From NCBI GenBank assembly GCA_036172245.1, contig JAYWIR010000084.1, positions 62,001-126,000 on the forward strand: 64,000 nt of DNA, given 5' to 3'. Below are positions 13,005 through 63,900 of the stretch, piece after piece. The notes under the pieces were generated by a model, which ran no database searches, was not told the origin of the DNA, and saw nothing but the letters and a program-made list of their open reading frames with translations. Position numbers and translations under genes: made by a program. Within the stretch, counting starts at the first letter, position 1, and every line of letters starts with the position of its first letter. The DNA is from Raillietiella orientalis. Its lineage: Eukaryota.

Positions 13005-13836
13005 CCACCCTCCAGATCGCAGGCAGGTAGGAGTTGATGAGCAACTGGACTACAGGAGAACTGGCGGACACCACGACCCCGACCGACCAGCCGAGAGGAC
13101 TGATGAGATAGGACGAGCTGCTCGCCATCCCGATAGATGAGCTGAAGTCGCCCCCAGTATTGAAGGAATCCAGGATCCTGCCCCTTAAGTGGCAAGAATC
13201 GGCCTTGCTTCTAGGGTTTACCCTGCAACGCACGCCGATTCCACTGAACAAGGAAGCAGGGAATCCTGAGTGAGCCAGATGTGGGGAGCGAAAATCGCTC
13301 CCCCACCTCATCTTTGATAGTGCTGCCCTCCGACCCCTTTGGGAACGGTTTGAGACGACCCTCGGGCTCCTGATGGGCAGAGCGTCCAGAGACGTTTTCC
13401 GGCTCCTCTTCGTGCGCGACGCCCTGCAGCCAACCGCAGCCCTCGCAACACTGCTGCGTCCGAGGCATCGTGGCGGCCTGGAGGGATACCGACAACGAAG
13501 AAGTGGATGCACAAGACATGGACATCATCCAACGTACGGTTTGCTTCATGCGGAGAGCTGCTGGATGGCTTCAACTGGGACCAATGCGGATGGACCTCGA
13601 GGGCTTTCTCGACGGATGGGCCCTCCTCCCAGTGAACTGTGATACCTTCCCTTCCCTCCAAAGTCTTTTTGTTTCTTTATTTTTTATTTTTGTTTTCTCC
13701 CCCATCCCCCTCCACTGCTAAGGGGAGATCACCGGCAGGTCCGGTGTTGTGTGGCCGTTAGTGTGGCCTTGTACCACGTTGTCTGTTGAACTTCGATTGA
13801 AGAGCTTTTAATAAACGTCGCGGCGTTACCGGGTGG
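13005..13836 (+). mobile_element. L1/Tx1-like element, 3' fragment with terminal motif
   Basis: ILPLKWQESALL region; AATAAA at 13810-13815 followed by CGCGG..CCGGGTG. Confidence 0.85.
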
Positions 13837-13849
13837 CATATCCAAATCT

Positions 13850-15200: not shown

Positions 15201-17110
15201 TTTGTCACCCAGGTGCTCCGGAGCGTTTATTAATAAACTATCCAGGAACAAAGTTTCCGGATAAAGGAGAAAGAAAAAAACGAAAGGGGAGGAGAAACGA
15301 AGGGGAGGAGCCCGACACGCAGGTCGGTATACCGAAAGTCCGGAACAAGAGAAAGGTGACCACAAATACACATATAGAAAATAAAAAGAAAAATATGGGG
15401 TGGGTAAGGGACAGGGGTCTCTTTGGTGCGGCCGTTCCAGTCTTTCAGAACCGGCGATGGATGCCGGCGATCTCTCTCCTCACTATCTCTGGAAGATGGG
15501 CCCACTCGGCAGCCGACGGCATGTTTGCGCTGGCTAATCCGGTAGACTAACGAAGGATGGCCAGCTTCTCCAACTCTCGGTGGGCCTTATCGATGGCGTT
15601 GGTGCAACACACGGCTGCAACGACAGCACCTAAAGACAGGCAGCCTGGCGTGAAGAAGCGGCGCATCAAGTCTCTCGTGGTCTTCTCCTGGTACAGGAGA
15701 GCTGAGGCCAGCCTTCGCCACAGTCCTAGGAGGGCACCGCAGTCCAAGAGCAGGTGCAAGAGCGTTTCCACTTCCCCGCACCGATTACAATTTGGGTAGA
15801 CAACTCCCCCGGAAACACGGTTCGTCCGCTGGTTGGAGTGAAAACCCCAATGCACCAGCATGATGACGTCCTGTTTCCAAGAAAGGGGGAACACAGAAGT
15901 GTTCAAACAGGAGGGAGGGACCTTAAGTTCTTCGAGGGGCACACTCAAGTGTTTACTCCCCCGAAAGAGTCCCTTCGGGATGTAGCGAACCGTGGCGGCG
16001 TCTGCCAGCTTGCAAAGTCCTGCAGCCGCCTATGGGTCGTGTTGATCCTGTGATGGTGTAGGCGACCTCTCACGTCGCCGGTTGGCAGCTGTCATCTCTT
16101 GCTCTGAGGGCTGACAGCGCGTCGGCGAGGGGCGTGACGGCCAGGCGAGTCCACTTCTCCTGGCTGTTACAGACCTCATCCACCGTGCAGTACGGGGAGA
16201 GGTGAGCGCAACGGAGTTCCAGAAGGGATACATACTCCAGCTTTGCCCAGGCATGAAACGGCTCCTGCCGCCAGCATTCAAAGTTCGTTAAGAGGCTGGA
16301 GATCCATTCCTGGGCTGCCAGGAGACGGTAGAGAGGTTTCAAGGGGAAATCAAAGCTTCTCTTGGCGTGCTCCGTATGCGGCCGGAGCGACAGAAGTCCA
16401 CTGCTGCCGGTACAACTCCCAAGAGCAGGAGCGCGGGAGCACACCGCGGAGTGTACCAAAGTTGGCGCACAGGGCCAACATCCGGAGTTGCACCTGCCGC
16501 TGGATTCTCTTCAGCGTCAGGATGTCTAAGCTGGCATTCCGACGCGGAGCCGCCAAGTCTTTGAGGCGGATCCTGGATCTCGCAGGCCACACAGAGCGCT
16601 GCTCAACAGGCTGTGCGCCTGGAGCTTGGCCGAGTAGGGGGGAGGAAAAACAAAAAGCAGGGGCGCAAGAGGGGGCAATGAAGGCGTTTGATATCGCAAC
16701 CCGCTCATACAGGAGGAACCTGCCATGGTGGAACGGGTTCAGAGAACAAGTAGCCTCACGAAGGCAGTCCAACCACACTTCCACTGGGCTAATGTTCCCT
16801 AGCAAAACGCCCAGATATTAGATGGACAAAGCGGCCGGGTTTCACAGGCGGATCCAGTCGGACTGCCCCTACCACGCTTCAAAAATAGGAACGGCCATGC
16901 TCTTGTTCCGGTTTACGCTCATGCCCGCTCCAAGGCGAATGAGCTCGAAGAAATCCTCGAGATTGTACGCCGGGGTGGTCATGGGTAAAAGAAGAAGCAG
17001 ATCTTCAGCATAGGCCGCTACGGATGGCGTTCCTGTACAAGAGCTTGGCAGGCTGGCCAGTGTCAACCTGTACGCCTTCAGCACCAACTCAAAGATTCTG
17101 AAGAGAAACA
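15201..17110 (-). mobile_element. L1/Tx1-like element, RT C-terminal half to 3' end
   Basis: AAYAEDLLL (YADD variant), CNRCGEVETLLHLLLDC, terminal motif at 15202-15231. Confidence 0.9.
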
Positions 17111-19380: not shown

Positions 19381-19386
19381 TTGAAT

Positions 19387-20800
19387 TCAAACCCGGTTCG
19401 CCGGGACGTTTATTTTTTCAAAAAAAAATTATACAAGCTTTGACTGGACTAGTAGTCCAGCCACGCCCTGGAAACAATGAGCCTGCCAAGATACCGGTGC
19501 GCAGACCGTCGCGGTCGACATCGGCAGCAGAGGGGAGGGGGAATCAAAGAAAAAGAAAACAAAAAATAAACAGAAACCGGGTCGGAAGCGAGAAGGGATC
19601 ACTGTCTGCTGGGAGGGTCCGTCATCCTCTGGAGGATGCCGGCAAGCTGTTGCTGGATGGTGGATTTCAGATAAGGCCATCGCGTCGCCATCCTCAGGAA
19701 ACGGGCGGCGTACACGGTGGCATCCCTGTCGCTGGACCCTCCCGTCGCTTTGTTCCAGGCAACGACGATCCCGCGTAGGCAGCACAGGGCTGCAAGCGAG
19801 GCCGCCGGAGGCAGGGCGTCACAAACGAAGAGGGGGCGCAAAACGTCTCTGGAATTGCCTCTGGGAATCCCCAGGGCCGCGGCAAAGCGTTCCCACAAGG
19901 GACGGAGGGCAACACAATCCACTAACAGGTGGGGGAGGTATTCCCTCTCCCCACACCTGACACAATTGAAGTTGACACCCCCCCGCGTCCAGTGGTGTCG
20001 GCGGACGTTGCAGGGAAGACGTCAATGCAACACCAGCTGTGCCGACTGTTGCCACTTGATGGGGAGGGTGCGCGAGTCCATGAGACCGGGGGCCACTCGA
20101 GATGTTCCTCCGATACATCCAGTAGCTCTCTTCATCGCAACAGTTCGTGTGGGTTGGTCCTCGGGGTCGCAGCGTTGGTCAGCTGACCCGTTCTCCAATC
20201 TCCGATCTTCTTTTCCCTGCAAGCGATGTTGAAGGTAACCTCCCATTGTGCCGCGACGTCGCTGCCCACATGTTCCCTTAGGGTAGGCATTACCGCAGCA
20301 AGTGAGGTTCTTTGTGCCCACGCTCTCCTTCGGGGATCCTTGACGATTTCTCGGAGCGTGCGGTGGGCGCGCGACACGACCAGAGCTATTCGCTCGAGTT
20401 GCGGAATCTGCTCCTGAGTCATCGCTTACGTTCAAACGGTTTCCTGCAGCCAGGCAGGACCGTTCGCGGGGCGTACGAAGATGTATCCTGCGTTGTTTTT
20501 CACGAGTTTGTCCGCCCTCCAAGGCTGAATTCCGCAGTGGCAGATCGGCTTCGGAGTACAAAGTAGGACGAGAGTTCCGCATGGCCGGTGACCTGCTCGA
20601 CGAGGAGTCGTGCTGGGAAGCACCAGGGGGTGCACCAGTTCTTTGCCATGAAGGCAACACTCCGGGACTGGAGCTGAAGCTCCAGGCGCTCCAGCGTCAG
20701 GAGGCCCAGACCACCATCCCGACATGGAGCGCACAAGTCCGCGAGATTGACTCTGGGATAACGGCACCCTTCCCCTGCAGTGGCAGGAGACGGCGTTGCT
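19387..20800 (-). mobile_element. L1/Tx1-like element, 3' part of ORF2 and terminal motif
   Basis: DLCAPCRDGGLGLLTLERLE, LPIKWQQSAQLVLH, zinc finger; motif at 19391-19414. Confidence 0.88.
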
Positions 20801-20819: not shown

Positions 20820-21522
20820 TTAAGCAGAGCGCGCTTGTCTCACTGGACACCGGGGAATGTGGATGCTAATTGCACAGACTGTGGGGAAAGAGAAACCTTT
20901 CCTCACTTAATCATTGAGTGCGTTGCCCTTCGCGATATGTGAAACCGACTCTCGTCCATATTGAACATTCCGCGGGGCGACCCGAAGAACATTTTTCGAC
21001 TCCTGTTGCGGGACGCCTTGCCAGCTTCCAAATGTGTAGCAGTGCTCTGTTGCATACGCAAAATACTGGACAAGTGGACCGCGTCAAAGAGAGGACATGC
21101 CAGTCGGAATGCCATCTACTGGGCAACCATCTCATCGGAGAAGGCCTGCCGTTGGCGCCGACTCGGAAAACATTTACAGGCACTCGTCCGCATCGTGACC
21201 GGATGCAGGGGCCTCCTCAAGGCGTACCGTGATTCCTTCCCTTCCCTCCCCCTCACGAAGAACATTACCCCCCAGGCGTTTTCTTTTTTTTTGGTTTATT
21301 TCTGTTTTTCCCCGCCCCTTTGCCAGTGTTGAGGACCTTATCCGCCTTCAGGTCGGTAAGGACAAGTGCCTCAAGACATTCGGGCCATATGTCCTGACTG
21401 AAAAACAAGGACAACAACAACAACAAAAAAAACAAAAACAAATCATGACTTTATTATGAATTTTTTTTTGTGTATTTTGAAAAATTTTAATGATAAAAGT
21501 TCCGGGTTACCCGGGTGAAAAA
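20820..21522 (+). mobile_element. L1/Tx1-like element, zinc finger, 3' UTR and terminal motif
   Basis: CTDCGERETFPHLIIEC; GATAAA-GTTCCGGGTTACCCGGGTGAAAAA at 21492-21522. Confidence 0.85.
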
Positions 21523-21659: not shown

Positions 21660-23108
21660 GGACGTGTTTTTTCCGCGCTCCTCTGCGGCTGTTGTAAAGA
21701 CTTTCGTTGAGTTAGTGTTTGTGTGTGGTGCATCTGCGGTGTCCAATGGCAGAAATGCCTGAGGACACCGCGATGGAAGTTGGCGGGGGAGAGGATTGTT
21801 CCTCTCCCCAACCCATTGAGGTGAGAGCAACTGCCCCCACGGAGAAGAGGGCAACCGCCCCCTAGAAAAAGGAAGCAACCGCCCTCGTACAAAAGGCCGC
21901 CACCGCCTCCATGAAAAAGGGGACAACCGCCGCCTTGAAAAAGGAGGCAACCGCGTTCTTGGATTCTTCCTCGGCAACGACGAAGACCTGGAGCGCTGTG
22001 GCTGCAGCACCATCCCCTGAAGCCATTGCCGAACAGTGTGCCTACCGAGATCAAGGGTATAAACCCTCCTTGATTTATATGGTAAACAACCTTTTTGTTG
22101 GAAACACCTTGATTTCCTACCTGCGCTTTTGCTGGCGGAACGCGATGATTACCATCTCTTTCAGTGGACAAAAGGTGTATGGCGTACCGGTGCGGCGGGG
22201 CATCAGGCAGGGCGATAGTCTCAGTCCCCTGCTCTTTGGCACCTACTTCGAGTTGGTCCTGAGAGCGTATAGGGTGACTTTGGCCCCGTTGCCGAGCTCG
22301 TGCCCCGGCACGCCCGCCGTTGCAGCATACGCCGACGATCACCTGCTGATGTTGCCCATGTCCGCCACGGTAGCCGCAGTCGAGGATTTCTTCGACCTGC
22401 TAAGCCGTGGGACTGGATTGCAGGTAAAGAGGGCGAAGTCGTCGGTGGTGTTAATAGGTGCGGCGTGGGCAGAACAGCAGCACTTGGTCCGTTTGGGAAT
22501 CCCCACGGCAAGGTGCTTGATGTACCTTTTCGTGCAATGTGGGGAGAGGGAAACCCTCCCGCACCTTTTAATTGACTGTGCTGCCCTCCGGTCCCTGTGA
22601 AAACGTTTCGGTTCCACCTTAGGGATCCTGGAAGGTAGTCTTTCCTGAGACGTTTTTCGGCTCCTCTTCGTGCGACACGCCCTGCAGCTAGCCGCTGTAA
22701 TAGCAGCTCTCTGCTACGTACACGGTATTCTAGCAGTTTGGAATGGATCCGACGAAGCAGAAGATGTCAACGGAAGGGTGCCATGGAGTATGCAGCTCGC
22801 TTACTGCGAATAGCATCCCGATGGCCCCACCTGGAAAATCTGTACCAGGACCTCGCAGGCATCCTGCAAAGGATGGAAGCTCCACCAAACGGACAGTGAT
22901 CCCTTCCCGGCCCTCCCAATGACCAGTGCTTCTACTTTTCATTTTTTTATTTCTGTTTTTCCCCTAACCCCATCCGTTGACGTAAAGTGTTATGTCGGTC
23001 TGTGCATTGAACACCAGACAGCTCCATAGAACTATTGGCTGCAGCGGGGCCTTGTACCGCAATTACTGTTAGTTTTTAAATAAATGCCCTGGCTTGACCG
23101 GGTGAAAA
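21660..23108 (+). mobile_element. Internally deleted L1/Tx1-like element retaining both ends
   Basis: GGACGTGTTTT start, ORF1 N-terminus fused to RT (GIRQGDSLSPLLF, AAYADDH), fused to the zinc finger; terminal motif at 23079-23108. Confidence 0.85.
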
Positions 23109-23850: not shown

Positions 23851-25620
23851 TTTTCACCCGGATAAGCCTAGGCATTTATTTCGGAAAAATGAAAATACAA
23901 TTATTTTTTCGAGTGAAGAACCCGAAGGTGCACCACGCGAAAACAGCTTGCTGGTTCCCGGCGCTGTGCCGGAGAGGTCCTTCCGATGCGCGGGGGTTGG
24001 GACAGAAAAAACAAAAAAAAAAAAGTTTAAACACGGGAGGGGATAAATGTTTTAGGGATAGGAGGGCAGGGAAGGGATCACTATGCGTCCGGATAGGTCC
24101 TCTAGATCCTATTCAGGATCGGGACAAGCTGAGTTCTCTGTGCGCCCAAGTGGCGCCACTTGCATACAGCTCGCACGAATAGGCGAGTCCATCGTAAGGC
24201 GTTGCCAGTTCGCTGACGTCTTCTGCTGGTGGCGTTCCAAGCCGCCACGATCCCTCGAATGCAGCAGAGGATTGCTACAGAAGCGGGTGGGGACAAGGCG
24301 TCACTACAGAAGAGGCGCCTGAAAACGTCCTTGGGACCGCATCCGTGCAAGTACGGGATCGCCGTAAGGCGATATCATAAAATGCGGATGGCACTGCACT
24401 TAATGAGAAAGTGAAGGAAGGTCTCCTTCTCCCCGCACCGGTCACAATTGGAATCCACAGCCCCCCGGGTGGTGTGGTGCAGGCGTGCTTTACAGGGTAA
24501 ACCCCAGTGCATTACAAGCAACGCCACCTCCTGCCATTTAAGGCGGAGGGATCCACTGTTCCAGGACGCTGGGGGCCACTACATCTCCTCCGGAGATAGT
24601 CCGAGTAGCTCTTCCCAGCGTCGAATTCCGTTGGGCAGGACACTCGGCGTCGCAGCATCCGCTAGCTGCCGAGATGTCCACGCCTTTATCGGTTGTGTCC
24701 TTCCGTTTACGGTGCAGGACACGGTCCATTTCCCTAGCTCCCTACTGTCACTTATACTGATGAGAAAGGGCAGCACTGGGGCAAGGAGGGTTATCAAAGC
24801 CCACATAAGCTTGTCGTGGGACTGCAGGATCTCCTGCAGCGCCCAGCGGGCATGCCTTTTCAAGGAAGTGTTCTTTGTGCCCGCCGGTACGTAGATCTTT
24901 TCTCAGGTGAAGACTGACTCGTGCAACCATGCCGAGTAGTTCCCTGGGAGGCAGAAGATATAGGCGTTCTCCCGTACCACAACGTCTATGCGACGCAGGA
25001 GAAAGTTGCCGTGTGCTTCTCTGCGGTCGCGCGCCAGCAGAAACGACTAAAGTCCGCCGAATCCGCAGGCTCGTTAAGCCATGAAGCGTGCTGGAACACA
25101 CCAAGGCGTGTCCCACAATTCGGCCGCTAGGGCGAGAGTCCTCAATCGGAGTTGGAGTTCCATGCGCTCCAGCGTAAGTACGCCAAGTCCTCCGTCCTTA
25201 CGTAGAGCGCACAAGTCTTCGAGCCTCACACGGGACCTCCTTTCGCCCCAAAGGACTGTCCTCAGGAAACCCGCTGCTCTTTTTCGAACAAAATAAGGGG
25301 CGGGGCAAACAAAAAGAAGGGGGCGAAGGAGGAAGGCCGCACACGCGTTCTACACCGCGGCCCGTTCCTCAAGTACAACTTGCTTTCTTGGAACGGACCG
25401 ATCGCCAACGCTACCTTTTGAAGACGGTCGGACCAGGCTTCTGCTGCGCAGAAGTCCTCCAACGGAACGCCAACGTACTTGAAGCACCTGCCCGTGAAGA
25501 TCCCCAAACGGATCCAGTCCGACCGTTCAGCCCACGCTGAGCCAACACAAGCCATCGACGACTTCGCTCTGTTCACCTCCAGGCCCGTCCCGCAACGCAG
25601 CAACTCGAAAAGTCGGCATT
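23851..25620 (-). mobile_element. L1/Tx1-like element, 3' half of ORF2 (same family as 50016-53185)
   Basis: GLEVNRAKSS, FKYVGVP, zinc finger; terminal motif at 23851-23880. Confidence 0.88.
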
Positions 25621-25671: not shown

Positions 25672-26277
25672 CTGGGGAGCGGTGGACCCCAATTGCGTCC
25701 GGTGTAAGGAACGGGAGTCCCTCCCCAACCTGCTAGTGGATTGTGTTGCCATTTGTCCCCTTTGGTTTCGCTTTGCCGCGGCCATCGGAATCCCCTGCGG
25801 CAACCCCAGGGAAGCACTGATAGCCCACTTCGTTGCCGACGCCCTTCGGCCAGCGGCCTCGTTAGTAGCTTTGTGCTGCCTACGCGGGATCGCAACCGCT
25901 TGGAGCAAGGCTACGGGAGGACAACGCGACCAGAGTGCCATCCAGCCAGCCTCCCAGTTCCTAAGGAGAGCGTCGCGATGGCCCCACCTGGATCGAAGCA
26001 TGCAGCAAGAGCTTGCCGGCATCCTGCGAAGAATTCAACGGCCCCACCAGCAACTGTGATCCCTTCCCGTACCCTCCCAGTTTTTTTCTTTTCTTTTTGT
26101 TTTGTTTTTTTGTTTTTCCCTTCCCTCTGCTGCCGTGGTGGACCGTGCCGGTCTGAGAACCGGTGACCCGGAAGGCTCTGTGTTTCTTCGTGCGCAGCTG
26201 GAGCAATGGTCCAGTCACTGCACGTCTTTGTAAATGTTTATTTTACATTAAACGCCCCGGTGGAATACGGGTGAAAA
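25672..26277 (+). mobile_element. 5'-truncated copy of the family found at 26289-37273
   Basis: DPNCVRCKERESLPNLLVDC and a 3' UTR collinear with 36680-37273. Confidence 0.88.
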
Positions 26278-27461: not shown

Positions 27462-30400
27462 TTATTACCCGGTTGCGCCGGAACGTTTATTATAATATCA
27501 ACTGAGAACTGTGTTCCCAGGCAGGAGGAACAGAAAATGGGGAGTAGATTTCCCGGAACGCAATCCGGGCACACTCAGAGTTCGGAACGGGAGGGGGTGG
27601 GACAATAAATAAATAAACTGGGTGGGAGGGCGGGGACGGGGGTATACAGTCTAACCGTTCCTATTCTCAGAACCGGCGGTGAATGCCACCGATCTCCGTC
27701 CTCACTTCTGCTCCAAGATGTGGCCACCCGGCAGCCATTTGCAAATTGCAGACCGCGGTGTCGGGGATGGATGTTGGGACTGCTCGCATCTATAATACGT
27801 GGCGGGCCCTTACAATGGCGCGGACGCAGCAGATGATTGCGACGACCGCTCCAAGAGATAGACCGCCACGCGTGTAGAAGCGGCGCATCCAATGCAGTGC
27901 GGTGTGTCCAGGGTGCAGGAGCGCTGAAGACAGCCGCCGCCACAGCTCCTGGAGGGCACCGCACTCAAAGAGCAGATGCGGAAGCGATTCCACCGCTCCG
28001 CATGTTGCACAGTTCGGGGACGCAACTACCCTGGAAACAAGGTGCGCGCGCTGGTTGTAGTACAAAGCCCAATGCACCAGCAGAAAAGCATGCTGTTTCC
28101 AACGGAGGGAGAAGACACTCTCGTCCAAGCACGCAGAAGGGACCACAAGTTCTTCGGCGGGCACCCCGAGGAGCACGCTCCACTGGAGAAGTCCCGTGGC
28201 ACGGAGGCGAGGTGTGGTGGCGTCTGCCACTTCGCAAGTCCTCCAGCCGCCCAGCTGTTGAGTATCGCTTGCTATTTCGCAAGCGACCTCCCACCTCGCC
28301 GGTAGGTCATTGTCGTCTCGAACCATCAGATAAGACAGTGCTTCGGCGAGGGGCGTAGCGGCTAGGCGTGTCCACTGGACCTGGTCTTCCGGCACCTCAC
28401 CCACTGTACAGTATGGGGAAAGTTTCACGCAGCGGAGTTCCAAACGGGACACATCCTGTTGCGCTGCCCAGGACGATAAAGCTTCCTGCCTCCAGGCGTT
28501 GAAGTTCGTCGGCCGTCAGGAGATCCACTCATGCTTTCCAGAAGCGTGGCGAGCTGCTTCAAAGGGAAGCCGAATCCTCTCTGGGCGCGCTCCGTGCGCA
28601 GATGCAACGAACGTAGTCCGTCGCCACCCGTGCTGCGCCGCAGCAGCAGCCGCGCTGGAGCACACCAGGGAGTAGTCCAGAGCTGCGCACAAAGTGCCAG
28701 CATGCGGAACTGCACTAGCAGTCCGATCCGCTCCAGCGTCAGGATGTCCAATCCTGCATCCCGCCGAGGAGGTTTAATTCCTTCAGGAGTATCCTGGACC
28801 TCGCCGGTCCCCACAGGGCGTTACGCAACAGGCGTTGCGCCCAGCGCTTAGCCGAGTAGGGAGGGGGACAAACAAAAAAGAGGGGACGGAGGAGGGGTGG
28901 ACATGGTCAGGAGCAGGAGAATGTCGTCAGCATAGGCGGCCACGGCCGGTGTTCCCGGGCAGGAGCTCGGCAGGTTGGCCAGAGTCAGCCTGTACGCCCT
29001 TAGCACCAACTCAAAGAATATGCTGAAGAGCAGGGGGCTTAAGCTGTCTCCCTGTATGATGCCACGCCGTATGGAAATGCCGTACACGTGGCGGCCGCTG
29101 AAAGAGATACAGGATAACGCGTGGCGCCAGCAGAAGCGCAAGTAGGCGATAAGGTGCGTCGGGAGGCCTAGGCGTCCCAGAAGCTCCAGAAGGAGGTTTT
29201 GGTTTACGCTGTGGAACTCTTTTCAGAGATCAACGGCGACCGCTAAGGCCCCCGGCGTTCCATCGTGCCTTGAACACCGCCGCTTACCTTTGGAAGCGGC
29301 GATTTAGGCTGCCTGGCTCTGCTGCTCCACGCGCTGCTTGAACTCGAACAATGTTCGCGCGAAGAAGAGATTCGCGTGCATGGACCGCCCCGGAACAGCA
29401 TACGTGTGTTCCGGACTTACCAAGGACTCCGCGATTCTCCTCAGCCGCGAGACCCACAGCTTCGAGAACAACTTGACGTCCGAATTCACCAAGGTGAACG
29501 GACGCCGGCTGCTGAGGTGGCGCAAATCACCGCCTTTCGGCAGGAGCCGCACCTTTGCTGAGCGGAAAGAAGCGGGAACACCTCCCGTCTCACGCATCAG
29601 CGAGGAAAGGCTTAGCACCAGGGGGACGAGCTCCGCCGCGAAGCACTGAAAGAACTCCGCGGGCAGGCCATCCTCCCCAGGCGCCTTACGCTTCTTCAGG
29701 CCCGCTATGGCAAAAGATACTTCTTCCGCCGTGAAGGGCCAATTCAATCTGGCGCGTTCCTCCTCTTTGATAGCAGAGTTGCCCGTCGGAAGAAGCAGCT
29801 CGGAGAGACTGCGTTCCGTGGGCTCCTCCGCGTAAAACGAGGAGTAGTAGCGCTTGACTACGCGGTGTACTTTGGCTGCAGCCGAGCATTCCTGGCCAGC
29901 GTCATCGAGCAGACAAGCCGCTCCAGACTGCCAAACCTGGCGCTCGGCCCTGGCCTTATACTCCTCCAGACGCCGGACGTCCGGGCATCGTGAAAAGGTA
30001 CGCGCCTGCAGATAGGATCTGCTGTTCGCGACACCCTCCCCGAAGCCGCGGGGAAGCAGGTGCAAGAAGAACCGGCAGCAGAACTCGCGGACCGATCTTT
30101 TCAGATCGTCCCAGTCCTCGAGTTCACAGATGGCGAAGCCCCGGAGGTGTTGGCGGAGATGCTCCGCCGCCTCCGAATTGCTAAGCCAGTCGGCCGGCAA
30201 CCTCCAGACATTCATTAAAGGCCCTTTGCCTGGCAAGTAGAGCTCGAACTCCAGTCTAGGATGATCCGAAATCGCGGACAGCAGGCGCCCTCTCCGACCT
30301 ACTCGTGAGAGCAGGTGTTCATCGAGAAACGCATGGTCCGGCGATCTCTCCATCCCGGGCTCACCAGCAAGCAAGTTTTGCACGCGCACGGACGCGCATA

Positions 30401-36903: not shown

Positions 36904-37273
36904 AGCACGGCGACGGGAGGACCCAGCGATCAGGACGCCATCCAGTGCGCCTCCCAATTCCTGAGGAGGGCGTCGCGATGGCTTCACCTGGATGTTCTCA
37001 ACAAACAAGAGCTTTCCTGCATCCTGAGAGAGATGATGCGGCCTCAGCAGCATCAGTGATCCCTTCATGTTCCCTTCCATCCTTTGTTTCTTTTTGTTTA
37101 GTTTTTCGTTTTCCTCTTTCCCCCTGCTGCCGTGATGGACCGTACCGGTCTGCAAACTGGTGACCCGGCAGGCTCTGTGTTTATTCGTGCGTGCATGCAG
37201 CAATGGTCCAGCCACTGCACGTCTTTGAAATGTTTATTTTGTAATAAACGTCCCGGCGAAATCCGGGTGAAAA

Positions 37274-46252: not shown

Positions 46253-46270
46253 TTCTGCGCAGTTACGCAG

Positions 46271-47643: not shown

Positions 47644-47644
47644 G

Positions 47645-50015: not shown

Positions 50016-53000
50016 TTTTCACCCGGATATGCGGGGGCATTTATTCAAAAGAATAAAATTACAATTAATTTTCGCGTGTTCAATTCAAAGGTCCACCACT
50101 ACAAAACAGCTTGGTATTTACCGGCGCTATGCCGGAGAGGTCCATCCGATGCGCGGGGGTTGGGAAAGAAAAAAAAAAAAAACAAACAAATAGTGGAAGT
50201 ATAGGAGGGAACAAATGTTTCGGGAATGGGAGGGCAGGGAGGGGATGACCGTGCGCGCGGATAAATCCTCTAGATCCTATTCAGGATCCGTACAAGCTGA
50301 GTCCACCCTGCGCCCAAGTGGCGCCACTTGCAGACGTCTAGGACGAATAGGCGAGTGAACCGTAAGGCGTTGCCGGTTGGCTGACGTCTTCTTCTGGTGG
50401 CGTTCCAAGCCGTCACGATCCCTCGAATGCAGCAGAGGACTGCTACAGAAGAGGGGGTGGACAAGGCGTCACTACGGAAGAGGAGCCTGGAAACGTCCTT
50501 AGTGCCGCATCCGCGCAAGTCCAGGATCGCCGTAAGGCGATCCCATAAAGGGCGGATGGCACTGCACTCGATGAGAAGGTGGGGGAAGGTCTCTTTTTCC
50601 CCGCACCGGTCACAATAAGGATCCACAGCCCCCCGGGTTGTGTGATGAAGGCGTGCTTTGAATGGAAGTCCCCAGAGGACCACAAGGAACGCCACATCTT
50701 GCCATTTCAGGTGGAGGCATCCACTGTTCCAGGACGCCGGGGGCCACTTTATCTCCTCTGGAGATAGTCCGAGTAGCTCGCCCCAGCGTCGAATTCCGTT
50801 GGGCGGGACTCTCGGCGTTGCAGCGTCCGCTAGCTGCCGAGATGTCCACGCCATAATCGTTTGTGTCCTGCCTCCAATGGTGCAGGACACGTTCCATTTC
50901 CCAAGCTCCCTACTGTCCCTGGCGTCGATTAAGAAGGGCAGCACTGGGGCAAGGGGGTTATCAAAGCCCACATGCGCTTTTCGTGGGACTGCACGATCTC
51001 CTGCAGTTTCCAGCGAACGTGCCTTTGCAGGCAAGTGTTTCTTGTGCCCGCCGAAACGTGGATCTTTACCCAGGTGGACACTGACTCGTGCAGTCATGCA
51101 GAGTAGTTCCCTGAGCGGCAGGAGATCCAGGCGTTCTCCCGTACCGCAACTTCCATGCGACTCAGGATTAAGCAGCCGTGTGCTTCTCTGCGGTCGCGTA
51201 TCAGCAGAAACGACAAAAGTCCGTCGAATCCGCAGGCTCGTTGGGCCAGGAGGCGTGCTGGAACGCACCAAGGTTTGTCCCACAATCCGGCCACGAGGGC
51301 GAGGGTCCTAAATGTCAATTGAACTTCCATGCGCTCCAGCGTAAGAACGCCAAGTCCTCCGTCCTTACGTGGAGCGCACAAGTCTTTGAGCCTCACACGG
51401 GACCTCCCTTTGCCCAAAAGGACTGTCCTCAGGAGGCCCGCTGCTCGTTTACGGATGAAGTAAGGGGCGGGGCACACAAAAAGTAGGGGGCGAAGAAGGG
51501 GGGCCGCAAACGCGTTCCACACCGCGGCCCGTTCCTGCAAGTAGAGCTTTCTTTCTTGGAACGGACCGGTCGCCAGCTCTGCCTTTTGGAGACGGTCGTA
51601 CCAGGCTTCTGCTGCGTAGAAGTCCTCCAACGGAACGTCAAGGTACTTGAAGCACCTGCCCGTGGGGATCCCCAAGCGGATCCAGTCCGACCGTCCAGCC
51701 CACGCCGAGCCGACGTGCATCATAGACGACTTCACTCTGTTCACCTCCAGGCCCGTCCCGCGGCGCAGCAACTCGAAGAAATCCTCGAGCGCACTCGCCG
51801 GGGTGGACCCGGGAAGCAGCAGCAGATCGTCTGCATAGGCCGACACGGCAGGCGTGCCGGCACACGAGCTCGGCAGGGTTGCCAGAGTTACCCTGTATGC
51901 CCTCAGCACCAACTCGAAGTAGATGCTGAAGAGCAAGGGGCTCAGGCTGTCACCCTGCCGGATGCCGCGGCGTACGGGCACGCCGTACACGTGCCGGCCG
52001 CTGAAACCAATATTGATTGACGCGTTGCGCCAGCAGGAGCGCAGGTAAGATTGAAGCACGGCAGGGAAACCAATGCGTTCCAGGAGCTCCAGAAGGAGAT
52101 CCTGGTCGACGCAGTCGAATGCTTTGTGCAAATCGACCGCGACGGCAAAGGCTCCCGCCGAGTCCATCCCACCCCCTGCCCGATCTTATTGGTCAGAGGG
52201 GCGCGCGAGGCTCCCTTGACCGTCCTGAGCAACGCGTTGTCGCAACTGCCACCATGAGCTGGCGAGGAGCAGGTTTGCCTCCATGGTTCGTCCGGGAACA
52301 GCGTAGGTCTGCTCGGGACTCACCACGGAAGCGGCCACCCGCCCCAAACGCTCAGCCCACAACTTAGCATACAACTTTGCGTCCGCATTCACTACTGTGA
52401 TGGGACGCCAGTTGCCAATGTTGCGTAAGTCTCCTGACTTCGGCAGGAGACGTACTGTTGCTGACCGGAACGAGGCGGAAACTTCGCCGTGTTCGCGGAT
52501 CAGCGCACTTAACCTGAGCACCACGGGGGCCAGCTCTGGCGCGAAGCGATGGTAAAACTCCGCGGGCAGGCCGTCCTCCCCTGGTGCCTTCCTTTTCTTG
52601 AGCCTGTTGATGGCGGAGATGATCTCCGCCATCGTGAACGGTTCCGCCAATCTGGAACGGTCCTCCTCCTTGAGCGCGGGAGCACCATCCGGCAGCAGGC
52701 GCTGCGCGAAATGGCGCTCAGGTGTTAGTGGCGCGTACAAGGAGGAATAAAACTCCCGCACGATGCGGCTAACCTGGGCTGGGCTGGAGCGTTCTTGGCC
52801 CTGATGATCCAGCAGGCAGGCCGAGCCTGACTGCCAGGCCTGCCTCTCCGCCTCAGCCTTGAATTCAGCCAGGCGACGGACGTCGGGACGCCGGGAATAA
52901 AGGCTCGCCTGGAGGTACGCCCGCTCGTTCCTGACACCCTCACTGAAGCCCGGCGGAAGACGTTCCAGGGGAAACTGGTCGCAAAACTCACGGACTGAGC

Positions 53001-53185: not shown

Positions 53186-53719
53186 AACGCTAGAGTGCTT
53201 GCGTGCAAAAGCAACGCCGACTCTTGCCACTTGAGGGGCAGGATCCTGGATTCTTTAATCACCGGGAGCCACTTCAGCTCATCCCTGGGGATGGCGAGCA
53301 GCTCGCCCCCTTTTTAATAATGCTCGCGGCTGGACGCTCGGGCTCGTGGCGTCAGCCAGTTCTCCTGTTGTCCAGCCGCTGATCAACTTCTCGCGTCCAT
53401 CGTTGCAGCAAGAGACCTGCCACCTTGGCGTCCGGCTGCTGTGAAGTGCCCTCTTCAGGAAGGGCAGCGCCGTAGCTAGACAGGTCGTCTCTGCCCACGT
53501 GCATCTTGCTGGACTCTCCAGGAGATTCCGCAGCGTGCAGCGGGCGTAGGGGCTGCGTCGGAGACGATTCCACGTCTAGGGGCTTCTCTGGTTAACAACT
53601 GCCCACGTTGCAATATTCTCCTTCAGCGAGGCGGGGGAGTTGGCGGGGCAGCAAACCATCCAGCTGTTCTCCTTGGCCAATGTTGCCATACGCCCGAGCA
53701 TTAGGCCGCATCTTCGCCG

Positions 53720-54970: not shown

Positions 54971-54982
54971 AGGAATTCGGCG

Positions 54983-57900
54983 TTGTCACCCGGGTACGCC
55001 CGGGACGTTTATTTGTAAACTCTACATGCGTGGTACGAGGCCCCACAACGGCCATAAACACGCAACCTGTCGGGATACCGGGACGCAGCCCGCCGTGGTA
55101 CTCCCCGACAGCGAAGAAGGATGGGGATAAGACAAAAAGAAAAAGAAAAAGAAACAAACAAAAAGAAGTTGAAGGGCGAAGAAGGGATCACTGGTTACTG
55201 TGGAGAGGGCCCATCCGTAGAACGAAGCCCTCGAGGTCAGTCTGTATATTTCTTAGTAGGGGCCATCCAACAGCTCTTCGCAAGAAGCGTTGGGCATACG
55301 GGATCACATCCCTCGCCTGTGGACCCACTCCTTCGTTGTTGGCGTCGCTCCATGTCGCCACGATGCCACGCACGCACCACAAGGCTGCAATGGCTGCGGC
55401 TGGCTGCAGTGCGTCCTTCACGAAGAGGGGCCGAAAAATGTCTCTGAAGGTGCTGCCGGTAGGGAGCCCGAGGGTCGTCCAGAACCGTTTCCAAAGGGGT
55501 CGGAGGGCAGCACAATCCACAATAAGTTGGGAAAGCGACTTCCGCTCCCCGTACCTGGCACACGCAGGATCCACAGCTCCGCTCGTCCAGTGGAAGCGGC
55601 GCGCGTTGCAGTGTAGACCCCAGTGCAACAAAAGCAACGCCGACTCTTGCCACTTGAGGGGCAGGATCCTGGATTCTTTCATCACCGGGGGCCACTTCAG
55701 CTCATCCCTGGGGATGGCGAGCAGCTCGCCCCCTTTTTAATAATGCTCGCGGCTGGACGCTCGGGCTCGTGGCGTCAGCCAGTTCGACTGTTGTCCAGCC
55801 GCTGATCAACTTCTCGCGTCCATCGTTGCAGCAAGAGACTTGCCACCTTGGCGTCCGGCTGCTGTGAAGTGCCCTCTTCAGGAAGGGCAGCGCCGTAGCT
55901 AGACAGGTCGTCTCTGCCCACGTGCATCTTGCTGGACTCTCCAGGAGATTCCGCAGCGTGCAGCGGGCGAAAGGGCTGCATCGGAGACGATTCCACGTCT
56001 CGTGGCTTGTCTGGTTAACCACTGCCCACGTTCCAATATTTTCCTCCAGCCAGGCGGGGGAGTTGGCGGGGCAGCAAACCATCCAGCTGTTCTCCTTGGC
56101 CAATGTTGCCATGCGCCCGAGCAGTAGGCCGCATCTTCGCATCTTCCGGCCACGGCTGAGAAGAAAAGACGCGAGTCCATCGCACCGGGACACACGGCTG
56201 ACCAGGAGGCGGGCCGGAGTGCACCAAGGGGTGCACCACATCTTCGCTGCGATGGCAAGGGTTCGCCACCGCAGCTGCTTCTCCAGTCGCTCCAGAGTCA
56301 GGAGGCCAAGACCTGCGTCCTGACGCGGAGCGCACAAGTCCTTCAGTGAGACTCGGGGCCTCCCATTTCCCCAAAGGGCGATACGGAGGAGGGCCTTCGT
56401 CCTTTTCTTGGATTCCACGGTGGGAGGGCAAACAAAAAGCAAATGGTGGAGGATAGTGCCGCGAAGGCGTTCTAAACCGCGGCCCGTTCTGGCAAGTTAA
56501 ACTTGCCTTCCAGGAACGGGCCGATCGCCGTCTCGACTTTTTGGAGGCAGCTGGACCACGCTTCCGCAGGGGAGTAGTCCCCCAACGGCACACCAAGGCA
56601 CTTGAAGCACCTCGCCGTGGGGATCCCCAGACGGACCCAGTCCTGCTGCCCTGCCCACGCCGCACCTATTGGCACAACCGACGACTTCGCCCTGTTAACC
56701 TGCAGGCCGGTCCCGCGGCTGAGCAGATCGAAGAAGTCTCCGACCGCCTTTGCCGGGGTGGACATTGGCAACAAAAGCAGAAGATCGTCGGCGTACGCTG
56801 CTACGGCGAGAGTGCCGGGGCACGAGCTCGGCAATGGGACCAAAGTCACCCTGTACGCTCTCAGCACCAACTCAAAGTAGGTGCTGAAGAGCAGGGGGCT
56901 GAGGCTATCTCCATGCCTTATGCCCAGCCGCACCGGCACGCCATAAACCTTATGACCACTGAAAGAGACGGTAATCATCGCATTCCGCCAGCAAGAGCGC
57001 AGGTAGGAAATCAGGGAGGGTGGGAAGCCCATGTGACCCAGGAGCTCCAAGAGAAGATCCTGGTCTACACAGTAGAACGCCTAGTGCTCTCCAGGGTGGA
57101 CGTATTTTCTCGGTGCTCCTCGTGCCAGGAAGTCTTCCCCAGTGCAAGCGTCGTGTGGTTCGGTGGACGATCAGGCAGCGATGCATGACGCGACCACCAG
57201 GAATGGCCAGGGGGCAGCGTCAACGCCGCCCCCAAAGGCGATGGAGAGCCAGGGGGCGGCGGCAACGTCGCCCCCAGAGGCGATGGAGGTGGGGGCATCC
57301 GCCCCCACAGAATCGGTCCCCGCTGCAGCGCGGGCGTGGAGCGCCGTTGTGTCGGCGGCATCGCCTGCAGCCGCGGCGGAATTGTCGGCCTATGTAGAGG
57401 AGGGGTACAACCCCTCATTGTTCTACAAGGTAGGCAATTTGTATTCTTTGGAGAGCGCGCGCGCCTTCTTGAAGGGCATACGCGCTCTCGATGTGAAAGA
57501 GGAGCTCAGCGCTATGACCATCCGCAGCGGGGTTTAGTACGTTGAGGTCCTCTGCAAACATGCAGAGCTGGCCCAACGACTGCTTAGAACCCCCGTTGTG
57601 ATGGAGACACGCAGGCTCCTCCCCACTACGGCGGATCGCATCATGGTGGTCCACCTGTTAGGTGTCACCGCGCGAATGCGCAAAGAACAGGGTCGCGCCG
57701 CTTTGGAACAGGTCGGAACGGTCCACGCGCAGTGGACGGAAGTAAGTCCTTCCGAGGACTACACGGGGCTGCAGCACGGCCTCACTGCTGCGCGCGTGAC
57801 CGTTCGGGAAGGCTGCACTTTTCCCCACAAACTGGTGGTCGAAGGCGAAACCGTCGACCTCTGGTATGTGGGGAAGCCGAAATACTGTGGCTTCTGCAAT

Positions 57901-60900
57901 ACGTCGGACCACCGCAAAAAGAGGTGTCCCAATGTGCAGTGCCAAGTATGCGGCACAATGGGCCACACGAGGGAGGTGTGCCCCAAAGCAGCAGCGCGGG
58001 TGGTTTCCAAGAGAAAACCTTAAAAACGCGCCCGGCTTCTGCAGAAAAGGCTGGCGGCGAAAGCTCTCGCGAAGGCTGTGCCACCCGCGCCCAAGACCCA
58101 GGCCGCACCCGATACCCCGGCGACCAACGCCGAAAAAGTTGAGGGAGCCGGCCAGGAGACTGGGTGGCAAGTGGCAACGGCCAAAAAATCAAAGAAGGAG
58201 AGGAGGATGGAAAAGAAAATCGCCTACCAACAGAAGAAGAAAGAGCAGGGTAGCGCGATAATTAAAGACTGCAGCGTCGTTGTCGAACGCGTAATCGATG
58301 TTGCCGAACGCTGCCGGAAAGAACTAGCCGCTACCGACGACCTCTTCTCTGTTGACACAGTCAACAGCGAGGGGAGAGAGCCGGCGGCGGCGTCCGTCAT
58401 CGACACCACCATCGATGAAGTAGCCTTCGCGCGAGCCGCAGAGAAGCTGGCAGCTTCGTTGCAGCCAGAACCCTCCAAGGCTGGCAAGAAGGCCGTAAGG
58501 CGTCCGGCCTCCCCTCAGGAGTCCCCCACTTCCGACCCCAAGGTAGAGGCCGGAAGCGCAGCCTCCGTTTGCACGGCACCGCGCAAGAAGGCTGGACGTA
58601 AGTCCACAAAGCCAAGGAAGCTCGTCTCCCCCGTCGTTATCACCCGGGTACGCCCGGGGTGTTTATTAATGAACTTTACATGCGTGGTACAAGGTCCCAC
58701 CACGGCCGTAAACACAGGACCTGTCGGGACACCGGGACGCAGCCCTGCATGGCACTCCCCGACAGCGAAGAAGGATGGGGATAAGACAAAAAGAAAAAGA
58801 AAAAGAAACAAACAAAAAGAAGTTGGAGGGCAGGGAAGGGATCACTGTTCGCTGTGGAGAGGGACCATCCGTCGAACGAAGCCCTCGAGGTCAGTCTGCA
58901 TATTCCCCAGTTGGGGCCATCCGGCAGCTCTTCGCAAGAAGCGTTGGGCATACGGGATGACATCCCTCGCCTGTGGACCCACTCCTTCGTTGTTGGCGTC
59001 GCTTCATGCCGTCACGATGCCACGGACGCAGCACAAGGCTGCGATGGCTGCGGCTGGCTGCAGTGCGTCCTTCACGAAGAGGGCCCGAAAGACGTCTCTG
59101 GGGGTGCTGCCTGTAGGGAGCCCGAGGGAAGTCCCGAACCGTTCCCAAAGGGATCGGAGGGCAGCACAATCCACAATAAGGTGGGGGAGTGACTCCCGCT
59201 CCCCACACCAGGCACACGCAGGAACCACAGCTCCCCTCGTCCAGTGGAAGCGGCGCGCGTTGCAGAGTAGACCCCAGTGCAACAAAAGCAACGCCGACTC
59301 TTGCCACTTAAGGGGCAGGATCCTGGATTCCTTCATCACAGACGGCCACTTCAGCTCATCCCTGGGGATGGCGAGCAGCTCGCCCCATCTTAATAATCCT
59401 CGCGGCTCGACGCTCGGGGTCGTGGCATCAGCCAGTTCTCCTGTTGTCCAGCCGCTGATCAACTTCTCGCGTCCCTCGATGCAGCAGGAGACTTGCCACC
59501 TTGGCGTCCGGCTGCTGTGAAGTGCCCTCCTCAGGAAGGGCAGCGCCGTAGCTAGGCAGGTCGTCTCTGCCCACGTGCATCTTGCTGGACTCTCCAGGAG
59601 ATTCCGCAGCGTGCAGCGGGCGTAGGGGCTGCATCGGAGACGATTCCACGTCTCGTGGCTTGTCTGGTTAACCACTTCTCACGTTCCAATATTGTCCTCC
59701 AGCCAGGCGGGGGAGTTGGCGGGGCAGCAAACCATCCAGCTGTTCTCCTTGGCCAATGTTGCCATGCGCCCGAGCAGTAGGCCGCATCTTCGCATCTTCC
59801 GGCCACGGCTGAGAAGAAAAGACGCGAGTCCATCGCACCAGGACACACGGCTGGCCAGGAGGCGGGCTGGAGTGCACCAAGGGGTGCACCACATCTTCGC
59901 TGCGATGGCGAGGGTTCGCCACCGCAGCTGCTTCTCACGCGCTCCAGCGTCAGGAGGCCAAGACCGCCGTCCCGCGCGGAGCGCACAAGTCCTTCAGAGG
60001 GACTCGGGGCCTCCCCTTGCCCCAAAGGGCGATACGGAGGAGGTCCTTTGTCCTCTTCTTTGTTTCCACGGTGGGGGGGCAAACAAAAAGCAAGGGGCAG
60101 AGGATGGGGGCCGCGAAAGCGTTCCAAACCGCGGCCCGTTCCTGCAAGTGGAACTTGCCTTCCAGGAACGGGCCGATCGCCGTCTCGACTTTTTGAAGGC
60201 AGCTGGACCACGCTTCCGCAGAGGAGTGTTCCCCCAACGGCACACCAAGGTACTTGAAGCACCTCGCCGTGGGGATCCCCAGACGGAACCAGTCCTGCTG
60301 CCCTGCCCACGCGGCACCTATTGGCACAACCGACGACTTCGCCCTGTTAACCTGCAGTCCGGTCCTGCGGCTGAGCAGATCGAAGAAGTCTCCAACCGCG
60401 TTTGCCGGGGTGGACATTGGCAACAAGAGCAGAAGATCGTCGGCGTACGCTGCTACGGCGGGCGTGCCGGGGCACAGGCTCGGCAATGGGGCCAAAGTCA
60501 CCCTTCACGCTCTCAGCACCAACTCAAAGTAGGTGCTGAAGAGCAGGGGGCTGAGGCTATCTCCATGCCTTATGCCCAGCCGCACCGGCACGCCATACAC
60601 CTTGTGACCACTGAAAGAGACGGTAATCATCGCATTCCGCCAGCAAGAGCGCAGGTAGGAAATCAGGGAGGGTGGGAAGCCCATGTGACCCAGGAGCTCC
60701 AAGAGAAGATCCTGGTCTACACAGTCGAACGCCTAGTGCGCTCCAGGGTGGACGTATTTTCTCGGTGCTCCTCGTGCCATGAAGTCTTCCCCAGTGCAAG
60801 CGTCGTGTGGTTCGGTGGTCGATCAGGCAGCGATGCCTGACGCGACCACCAGGAATGGCCAGGGGGCAGCGTCAACGCCGCCCCCAAAGGCGATGGAGAG

Positions 60901-63900
60901 CCAGGGGGCGGCGGCAACGTCGCCCCCAGAGGCGATGGAGGTGGGGGCATCCGCCCCCACAGAATCGGTCCCCGCTGCAGCGCGGGCGTGGAGCGCCGTT
61001 GTGTCGGCGCCATCGCCTGCAGCCGCGGCGGAATTGTCGGCCTATGTAGAGGAGGGGTACAACCCCTCATTGTTCTACAAGGTAGGCAATTTATATTCTT
61101 TAGAGAGCGCGCGCGCCTTCTCGAAGGGCATGCGCGCTCTCGATGTGAAAGAGGAGGAGCTCAGCGCTATGACCATCCGCAGCGGGGGTCAGTACGTTGA
61201 GGTCATCTGCAAACATGCAGAGCTGGCCCAACGACTGCTTAAAACCCCCGTTGTGATGGCGACACGCAGGCTCCTCCCCACTACGGCGGATCGCAGCATG
61301 GTGGTCCACCTGTTAGGCGTCACCGCGCGAATGCGCAAAGAACAGGTTCGCGCCGCTTTGGAACAGTTCGGAACGGTCCACGCGCAGTGGACGAAAGTAA
61401 GTCCTTTCGAGGACTACACGGGGCTGCAACACGGCCTCACTGCTGCGCGCGTGACCGTTCGGGAGGGCTGCACTCTTCCCCACAAACTGGTGGTCGAAGG
61501 CGAAACCGTCGACCTCTGGTATGTGGGGAAGCCGAAATACTGTGGCTTCTGCAATACGTCGGACCACCGCAAAAAGAGGTGTCCCAATGTGCAGTGCCAA
61601 GTATGCGGCACAATGGGCCACACGAGGGAGGTGTGCCCAAAAGCAGCAGCGCGGGTGGTTTCCAAGAGAAAACCTTAAAAACGCGCCCGGCTTCTGCAGA
61701 AAAGGCTGGCGGCGAAAGCTCTCGCGAAGGCTGTGCCACCCGCGCCCAAGACCCAGGCCGCACCCGAGACCCCGGCGACCAACGCCGAAAAAGTTGAGGG
61801 AGCCGGCCAGGAGACTGGGTGGCAAGTGGCAACGGCCAAAAAATCAAAGAAAGAGAGGAGGATGGAAAGGAAAATCGCCTACCAACAGAAGAAGAAAGAG
61901 CAGGGTAGCGCGATAATTAAAGACTGCAGCGTCGTTGTCAAACGCGTAATCGATGTTGCCGAACGCTGCCGGAAAGAACTAGCCGCTACCGACGACCTCT
62001 TCTCTGTTGACACAGTCAACAGCGAGGGGAGCGAGCCGGCGGCGGCGTCCGTCATCGACACCACCATCGATGAAGTAGCCTTCGCGCGAGCCGCAGAGAA
62101 GCTGGCAGCTTCGTTGCAGCCAGAACCCTCCAAGGCTGGCAAGAAGGCCGTAAGGCGTCCGGCCTCCCCTCAGGAGTCCCCCACTTCCGACCCCAAGGTG
62201 GAGGCCGGAAGCGCAGCCTCCGTTTGCACGGCACCGCGCAAGAAGGCTGGACGTAAGTCCACAAAGCCAAGGAAGCTCGTCTCCCCCGTCGTTATCACCC
62301 GGGTACGCCCGGGGTGTTTATTAATGAACTTTACATGCGTGGTACAAGGTCCCACCACGGCCGTAAACACAGGACCTGTCGGGACACCGGGACGCAGCCC
62401 TGCATGGCACTCCCCGACAGCGAAGAAGGATGGGGATAAGACAAAAAGAAAAAGAAAAAGAAACAAACAAAAAGAAGTTGGAGGGCAGGGAAGGGATCAC
62501 TGTTCGCTGTGGAGAGGGACCATCCGTCGAACGAAGCCCTCGAGGTCAGTCTGCATATTCCCCAGTTGGGGCCATCCGGCAGCTCTTCGCAAGAAGCGTT
62601 GGGCATACGGGATGACATCCCTCGCCTGTGGACCCACTCCTTCGTTGTTGGCGTCGCTCCATGCCGCCACGATGCCACGGACGCAGCACAAGGCTGCGAT
62701 GGCTGCGGCTGGCTGCAGTGCGTCCTTCACGAAGAGGGGCCGAAGAACGTCTCTGGGGGTGCTGCCCGTAGGGAGCCCGAGGGTCGTCCCGAACCGTTCC
62801 CAAAGGGGTCGGAGGGCAACACAATCCACAATAAGGTGGGGAAGCGACTCCCGCTCCCCGCACCTGGCACACGCAGGATCCACAGCTCCCCTCGTCCAGT
62901 GGAAGCGGCGCGCGTTGCAGGGTAGACCCCAGTGCAACAAAAGCAACGCCGACTCTTGCCACTTGAGGGGCAGGATCCTGGATTCTTTCATCACCGGGGG
63001 CCACTTCAGCTCATCCCTGGGGATGGCGAGCAGCTCGCCCCCTTTTTAATAATGCTCGCGGCTGGACGCTCGGGCTCGTGGCGTCAGCCAGTTCTCCTGT
63101 TGTCCAGCCGCTGATCAACTTCTCGCGTCCATCGTTGCAGCAAGAGACTTGCCACCTTGGCGTCCGGCTGCTGTGATGTGCCCTCTTCAGGAAGGGCAGC
63201 GCCGTAGCTAGACAGGTCGTCTCTGCCCACGTGCATCTTGCTGGACTCTCCAGGAGATTCCGCAGCGTGCAGCGGGCGTAGGGGCTGTATCGGAGACGAT
63301 TCCACGTCTCGTGGCTTGTCTGGTTAACCACTTCTCACGTTCCAATATTTTCCTCCAGCCAGGCGGGGGAGTTGGCGGGGCAGCAAACCATCCAGCTGTT
63401 CTCCTTGGCCAATGTTGCCATGCGCCCGAGCAGTAGGCCGCATCTTCGCATCTTCCGGCCACGGCTGAGAAGAAAAGACGCGAGTCCATCGCACCAGGAC
63501 ACACGGCTGGCCAGGAGGCGGGCTGGAGTGCACCAAGGGGTGCACCACATCTTCGCTGCGATGGCGAGGGTTCGCCACCGCAGCTGCTTCTCACGCGCTC
63601 CAGCGTCAGGAGGCCAAGACCGCCGTCCCGACGCGGAGCGCACAAGTCCTTCAGAGGCACTCGGGGCCTACCCTTGCCCCAAAGGGCGATACGGAGGAGG
63701 TCCTCTGTCCTCTTCTTTGTTTCCACGGTGGGGAGGCAAACAAAAAGCAAGGGGCAGAGGATGGGGGCCGCGAAAACGTTCCAAACCGCGGCCCATTCCT
63801 GCAAGTGGAACTTGCCTTCCAGGAACGGGCCCATCGCCGTCTCGTCTTTTTGAAGGCAGCTGGACCACGCTTCCGCAGGGGAGTATTCCCCCAACGGCAC

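Follow-up and report, generated by a model that had tools for sequence, protein, structure and literature searches.

A conserved tail-less 3' end and family-specific insertion targets in L1/Tx1-type LINEs of Raillietiella orientalis

Ends and elements in the window

The window is a 64,000-nucleotide stretch of the Raillietiella orientalis genome (contig JAYWIR010000084.1, positions 62,001 to 126,000), much of it a nest of LINEs inserted into one another. An earlier note on its sequence listed 15 sites at which otherwise divergent elements end in a common motif, and all 15 are present. The ends and the better preserved elements are listed here; the family letters (A, B, C1, C2, C3, D, E, F, G) are labels coined in this analysis.

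11838..11867, plus strand: degenerate 3' end of family C1; the DNA beyond it codes for endonuclease, antisense, near residue 88 of the host element's ORF2
13810..13839, plus strand: 3' end of an older F-related family (ends TGGCAT)
15202..15231, minus strand: 3' end of family A at the family hot spot, antisense, host endonuclease residue ~87
19386..19414, minus strand: 3' end of family G (ends TTTGAA), antisense at the LRGVT..L linker site, host ORF2 residue ~293
21492..21521, plus strand: 3' end of an unassigned family, antisense, host ORF2 residue ~550
23079..23108, plus strand: 3' end of family C2, antisense at the host endonuclease VRFD site (residue ~116)
23851..23880, minus strand: 3' end of a D-related family, within host ORF1 linker DNA
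26247..26277, plus strand: 3' end of family B, head-to-tail before the 5' end of another B copy, with the KAFD target regenerated
27462..32910, minus strand: near full-length but broken family E element (5,449 bp; 3' end 27462-27491), antisense in the ORF1 CSVVV codons of a B host, with a 14-bp TSD (2 mismatches; partner 32911-32924)
33417..37273, plus strand: older B copy with a frameshifted ORF2 (APE endonuclease, RT, zinc knuckle); its 3' end (37243-37273) lies antisense in the KAF/D codons of a host RT
43556..43585, plus strand: 3' end of family E, away from the usual E site, antisense within the ORF1 of a B-type host
47623..47659, plus strand: 5' junction between a C3 element and the G/DFN codon of a host endonuclease, RGACGTG box present
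50016..50045, minus strand: 3' end of family D at the family hot spot, antisense in ORF1 of a D-type host
54983..55013, minus strand: 3' end of family F, head-to-tail before the 5' end of another element
58637..58667, minus strand: 3' end of family F, lying antisense within the ORF1 of a B host; the end at 62292 is this insertion again
62292..62322, minus strand: duplicate of the 58637 end

Allowing up to 4 substitutions, the motif occurs 14 times in the window compared with 0 in each of 20 composition-keeping shuffles. The site at 11838 is the 15th; it matches the 3' UTR of another copy at 78% and, judged by this likeness, represents a decayed but genuine element end. Because the ends at 58637 and 62292 are a single insertion copied within a 3.65-kb duplication, the window holds 14 independent ends. 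The tandem duplication spans 53206-63999 with a unit of ~3.65 kb, 94–96% identity, and contains a B copy and the F end; a third copy of the duplicated F junction lies just beyond the window (L071, L167). Position 18772 was rejected as the TSD partner of the end at 15202, being an empty site in another host copy.

Positions 1-11000 form a flank of lower GC content (39–48%) with an old copy of the group at 4035-4655 and decayed ORFs at 5015-7588 that resemble another retroelement (C2H2-like finger, weak Pfam hits). Inside the nest, in a stretch of lower GC content, lies a plus-strand fragment (46133-46591) encoding part of a Rep protein of the type found in circular single-stranded DNA viruses (Pfam Viral_Rep, E 5e-12).

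The 3' end and the elements that carry it

Over 294 distinct ends the motif has the form AATAAA-YGY-CCCGG-loop of 4–6 nt-CCGGG-TNNNAA. The consensus of the earlier note captured a real motif, although as written it is matched exactly at only 3 sites; its terminal hexamer TRANAA was too narrow and is corrected here to TNNNAA, as TTTCAA, TGGCAA and TGTGAA also occur, besides TGGCAT at 13810 and TTTGAA at 19391. In the genome as a whole (210 Mb) the strict pattern has 1,108 exact matches compared with 0 for the reversed control. We also collected 210 loci, the 30 best hits for each of 7 families, chosen by the 3'-UTR sequence upstream of the motif, with each query's own locus included (189 distinct junctions). 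The motif is terminal in 210 of these 210 loci and is followed by four A's in none, and three or more extra A's follow only 4 of the 1,108 exact ends, in agreement with the earlier claim of invariant ends without poly(A). The last 30 nt are 81% alike across the 7 families compared with 60% for the preceding 150 nt. The motif was found in 0 of 20 distant metagenome loci (20–36% identity).

An exact TSD of 10–17 bp begins at the base right after the motif in 34 of the 210 loci, in a search that covered ~1.8 kb per locus, and 28 of these 34 share 0 bases to the left of the junction. In the remaining loci the 5' end probably lies mostly beyond ~1.8 kb, as verified for some. Full-length copies measure 5.4–5.9 kb and have TSDs of 9–18 bp, and the shortest truncated copy has 78 bp. 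The marks of TPRT are all present (TSD, variable 5' truncation, fixed 3' end), and the TSDs and 5' truncations together with the exact 3' junction therefore indicate TPRT with a fixed, tail-less junction. The terminal NAA cannot derive from the target, as the TSDs begin after it, and neither a T-tract nor NAA was found before the 5' TSD. The traits of canonical relaxed L1, a poly(A) tail and a TTTT/AA target, are absent.

ORF2 encodes an APE endonuclease, an RT and a C-terminal zinc knuckle (zf-RVT) with no RNase H by Pfam, while the Pfam matches of ORF1 to CCHC zinc knuckles are weak (E 0.002–0.009). Pfam, PDB and fold searches all find the ORF content of the L1/Tx1 group, with human L1 ORF2p (8uw3, E 3e-45) as the best solved relative; given the ORF content and TSDs, the end is neither that of a Helitron nor that of an LTR element. 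As had been proposed, the motif marks a defined 3' terminus of L1/Tx1-type LINEs, and the group consists of divergent two-ORF LINEs of this type that insert by TPRT. Open ORF2 copies of about 1,200 aa exist, and L062 and L263 have open frames. ORF2 C-terminal sequence lies upstream of the motif in 24 of the first 30 exact matches, and the other 6 are short truncated copies with TSDs. No partner SINE was found among these 30, and no tRNA gene in 20 of them.

Among 1.84 billion representative proteins, close relatives are P0001 (71% identity) and the short P0157 (65%), both metagenomic; other relatives reach at most 36%. In a quick RT tree, built with a reference set lacking curated Tx1 elements, the group forms one clade (99) on a branch of 1.26 that the tree does not place firmly. 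A turtle match (P0064) has motifs resembling those of the group, and we take it to be Tx1-like. Adjoining the nest at L066 (1-2348) is a LINE unrelated to the group, whose RT is more typically Tx1-like (DMEKAFD, PVQTCAIPGR).

The earlier note described a variable loop on a largely kept stem, and this description holds: the CCCGG/CCGGG stem is near-invariant and the loops are family-specific. The central pair probability is at least 0.88 for 6 of the 9 commonest loops and 0.33–0.38 for the other 3. The covariation test suggested in the same note gave no support, with 0 two-sided changes in the 5-bp stem among 48 cluster representatives, a covariation score of 0.108 compared with 0.112 for shuffled data, and no pairs predicted by RNAalifold. 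Because the stem hardly varies, this absence of covariation is weak evidence either way. Transitions that keep a wobble pair outnumber those that break the pair 31 to 18 (p = 0.085), and Rfam at the gathering threshold gave 0 matches in the window. An RNA hairpin is plausible from the sequence, and the constant stem with family-specific loops fits the stem/loop recognition scheme described for L2-type elements (PMC4176376). Of the features of stringent LINEs, the conserved 3' sequence able to form a stem-loop is present, and there is no 3' repeat beyond it. The group would work like a stringent LINE yet lacks the covariation and the 3' repeat that serve as criteria for one.

In each of the 294 ends, AATAAA stands 23–25 nt before the terminus, a spacing that the search pattern partly dictated. 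A GTTT/ATTT arm further upstream can pair with AATAAAY: clusters of the AAAC type have GTTT only in 18 cases and ATTT only in 5, compared with 1 and 6 in the AAAT type, and the tracking of Y by the arm is probably one evolutionary change. UGUA plays a role alongside poly(A) signals. TGTA occurs upstream of AATAAA in 19 of the 48 cluster representatives compared with 9.4 in shuffled sequences (0 of 200 shuffles as high); the clusters are not independent, and TGTA is missing in 4 of 11 multi-copy families. The enrichment agrees with a functional poly(A) signal.

Insertion sites inside sister elements

One feature escaped the earlier note: beyond the end lies target DNA that is specific to the family and belongs to sister elements. 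Target logos differ from family to family. Family B inserts at TCGAA, antisense in the KAF/D codons of RT, in 15 of its 30 loci (hosts F, E, D and C3); another 3 form tandems at the 5' junction of a B copy, 2 lie elsewhere in elements and 10 have no element match. Among 50 exact B ends listed genome-wide, with a pattern that left out ends with T at flank position 13, 39 start with TCGA and ~33 are KAFD-derived by eye. A selection of 20 B ends picked as likely or doubtful contained 15 KAFD sites (hosts also A and B), 4 tandems and 1 that is neither. For C3 the flank starts with ATTYCAAY in 30 of 30 loci, 21 of them sense in the catalytic G/DFN codon of a host endonuclease and 9 before the 5' end of another C3. 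Family E hits the ORF1 CSVVV codons in 17 of 30 loci, F hits ORF2 residue 319 in 13 of 30, C2 hits VRFD in 14 of 30 (three of which are one triplicate), and D hits its own ORF1 in 8 of 30. By Kojima's rule, under which over 20% of flanks in one repeat indicate a target preference, these six families have one and family A, with 4 of 30 at endonuclease residue 86 and the rest dispersed, does not. The target of each family is often one conserved codon of a sister family, such as KAFD of RT or GDFN of the endonuclease, hit independently.

The independence of these hits depends on whether the shared ends and landing sites could instead come from the duplication of a few composite units. Such duplications do occur (58637/62292, L039/L042, L247-249, L287/L288), and distances among elements correlate positively, if weakly, with those among their flanks (rho 0.04–0.37, p 0.027–0.42). 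However, in each of the 5 families compared, the divergence of the host flanks is 2–6 times that of the inserts, and truncation points differ among copies at the same site, so most shared sites are independent insertions. B insertions are moreover found in hosts of at least six families, and dispersed copies have unique TSDs. Duplication as the general explanation is largely refuted and strikes us as very improbable.

TCGAR occurs 17–32 times per full-length element and is all that the dispersed B sites share, and one site takes most of the in-element B hits; the bias to KAFD must therefore involve more than five bases. Seven of 9 short B copies are dispersed, at sites sharing only about 5 bases, and poorer survival of long dispersed copies may make the in-element share look larger than it is. 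Intact KAFD sites assigned to B end in GAT in 7 of 7 cases (L062, L067 and others) and none is occupied, while nearly all occupied KAFD sites with a visible 5' junction have GAC. It is possible that this synonymous difference gives family B a partial self-immunity. Strict self-avoidance is ruled out by the B-in-B insertions L294 and L158, and self-avoidance is at most partial because of them.

Choice of start point and target

In truncated copies of family A the sequence upstream of the nick is biased, with C at -4 in 16 of 23 (p 3e-5), C at -2 in 14 of 23 and G or T at -6 in 20 of 23. Pairing between RNA and primer cannot give this bias because the positions lie outside the primer strand. The surface loops of the endonuclease differ between families. 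The spacing between the two catalytic aspartates is 41–43 in 13 of 13 of the group's own copies compared with 59–71 in 53 relatives and 60 in human L1, making the endonuclease 17–19 residues shorter than human L1 in this interval. A structural model (pLDDT 90.8; best fold match 1vyb, E 6e-17) has no strands at the position of the betaB6-betaB5 hairpin, and the endonuclease lacks the DNA-probing hairpin loop of the L1/Tx1 type. Repanas et al. (PMC1950540) tie this loop to target selection in human L1; an 11-residue hairpin loop is reported there for the Tx1L endonuclease and is absent here. Targeting by protein alone is awkward for an endonuclease without this hairpin. Bias on both sides of the nick nevertheless favours protein-based targeting, with help from the RNA as a live rival.

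A conserved RGACGTGYYTT box lies 15–25 nt inside 5' junctions (in the window at 26303, 41121, 47650, 47794, 48917 and 54953, and at many other loci). In families B and G the target word CAGTC lies exactly 27 nt upstream of the box; a DPE is located at +28 to +32 (PMC4748587). A split promoter as a general rule fits B and G but fails for C3 and was rejected. Five full-length B 5' junctions in different contexts (L133, L144, L146, L154, L161) have the same variant at TSD position 5, and in the 3 that have a close intact relative in register the relative has the usual base. From these comparisons the shared variant looks as if it were inherited from donor RNA.

These results lead us to propose the following scheme, which taken as a whole we regard as reasonably likely. 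AATAAA would act as a polymerase II 3'-end signal, setting the end of the RNA ~24 nt downstream. The ORF2 protein would bind the CCCGG/CCGGG hairpin, whose stem is shared and whose loop is family-specific, and cDNA synthesis would start six bases past the stem, leaving any poly(A) uncopied and involving no A:T pairing with the target. R2 is known to prime without complementarity (PMC3649969). The site would be chosen mainly by a family-specific endonuclease reading a degenerate ~10-bp sequence that spans the nick, and its best match would often be one conserved codon stretch in sister families, giving rise to nests and head-to-tail tandems.

The RNA may instead carry a memory of the target: transcripts would overrun the hairpin by a few to many bases into the donor's target, the flank would take over from poly(A) in pairing with the nicked strand, and on the 5' side transcripts may start within the target. 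Junctions would then be exact and each family would return to the same codons, and the junctions indeed have no extra bases. Cleavage directed by AATAAA could fall within the flank. The five B 5' junctions with a common variant base, the missing endonuclease hairpin and the CAGTC word 27 nt upstream of the RGACGTG box in B and G, comparable to a DPE (PMC4748587), point the same way. On the other hand, among positions +1 to +4 of family A the last base of the primer, +1, shows the lowest conservation (0.5 bit), +2 varies in C2, the bias upstream of the nick needs a protein, the +28 spacing does not hold for C3 and gives a mixed picture in other families, and the 7 dispersed short B copies landed at sites with so few common bases. 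We consider a target memory of this kind unlikely. In a wider and slightly more doubtful version, the group would be a guild of LINEs that lost both tail and endonuclease hairpin and carry their target in RNA, with a leader that starts in target DNA providing the initiator and a short 3' read-through that pairs with the primer. Each family would then home to a catalytic or conserved codon of rival families and so knock these out, with B partly sparing itself by a synonymous codon. Quite improbable, in our judgement, is that the main role of the 30 nt lies in RNA 3' processing or termination, or in providing a sequence-specific protein site, with the RT starting at a processed, non-adenylated end and the hairpin unneeded. 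In its favour, the sequence is invariant rather than covarying, AATAAA keeps a distance of 23–25 nt from the end, partly set by the pattern, and the pairing of AATAAAY with the upstream arm (18:5 versus 1:6) could regulate processing. Against it, family-specific loops on a common stem match the scheme measured for L2 (PMC4176376), and a plain relaxed RT should copy the tails of host mRNA, which the rarity of extra A's (4 of 1,108 ends) contradicts.

With hairpin-anchored priming and endonuclease-led targeting as the preferred reading, the group offers a naturally occurring L1-type case where neither poly(A):T pairing nor a 3' repeat can underlie priming. Its at least 11 multi-copy families, with one common end but differing loops and targets, form a panel for studying where an APE-type LINE starts copying and where it inserts, and what makes it specific when the endonuclease hairpin is missing; these questions are testable because open ORF2 copies exist. 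The mutual targeting of coding motifs in sister elements is also relevant to the choice between safe-harbour and conflict models in transposon ecology.

The tail-less end together with family-specific targets is a new combination of known LINE strategies. Our search, whose scope lay outside subscription journals and Repbase, found no published account of the tail-less end or of mutual targeting. Stem-loop recognition is established for L2-clade stringent LINEs (PMC4176376); ZfL2-1, ZfL2-2 and UnaL2 likewise have a 3' stem-loop with a common stem and an element-specific loop, but a 3' repeat follows their stem-loop, whereas here there is a single 6-nt overhang and an RT of the L1/Tx1 type. It has also been proposed for some plant and algal L1s, where 9 of 233 and 5 of 15 families, respectively, have no 3' repeat (PMC3472496, PMC3747384). 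In the maize LINE1-1_ZM ('monocot 1a') and Chlamydomonas L1-1_CR the last ~45 nt are likewise far more conserved and hairpin-capable; in stringent L1s of plants and algae, as these sources describe them, the stem covaries, the loop is conserved and there are SINE partners, whereas here the stem is invariant and the loop varies. Human LINE-1 (8uw3, 1vyb) likewise has TSDs of about 14 bp and 5' truncation, and differs in its poly(A), its T-tract target and its longer endonuclease.

The Tx1 clade (Tx1L in Tx1D, Tx1-Mar in Mariner-N4, Tx1-8_Crp in LTR elements, and Keno, Kibi and Koshi) also consists of APE-type L1 relatives with family-specific targets. The targets reported in PMC4494074 are other TE classes, RNA genes and microsatellites rather than coding motifs of sister LINEs, and the clade has SINEU partners with poly(A). 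Homing of retroelements into specific sites of related retroelements is described for the group II twintrons of Methanosarcina (PMC4424553), but these are self-splicing archaeal introns with RNA-guided homing and offer an analogy only. The Zepp and ZeppL L1s of green algae similarly insert into their own copies and form dense clusters (PMC8226300). Zepp ends in poly(A) (PMC3472496), and the present group differs from both in comprising several families, each with its own fixed codon, that insert mostly into other families and mostly antisense. Many copies of the group lie near contig ends or on small contigs (for example C3:2016, C196:85 and C369:60), as expected if nests break the assembly.
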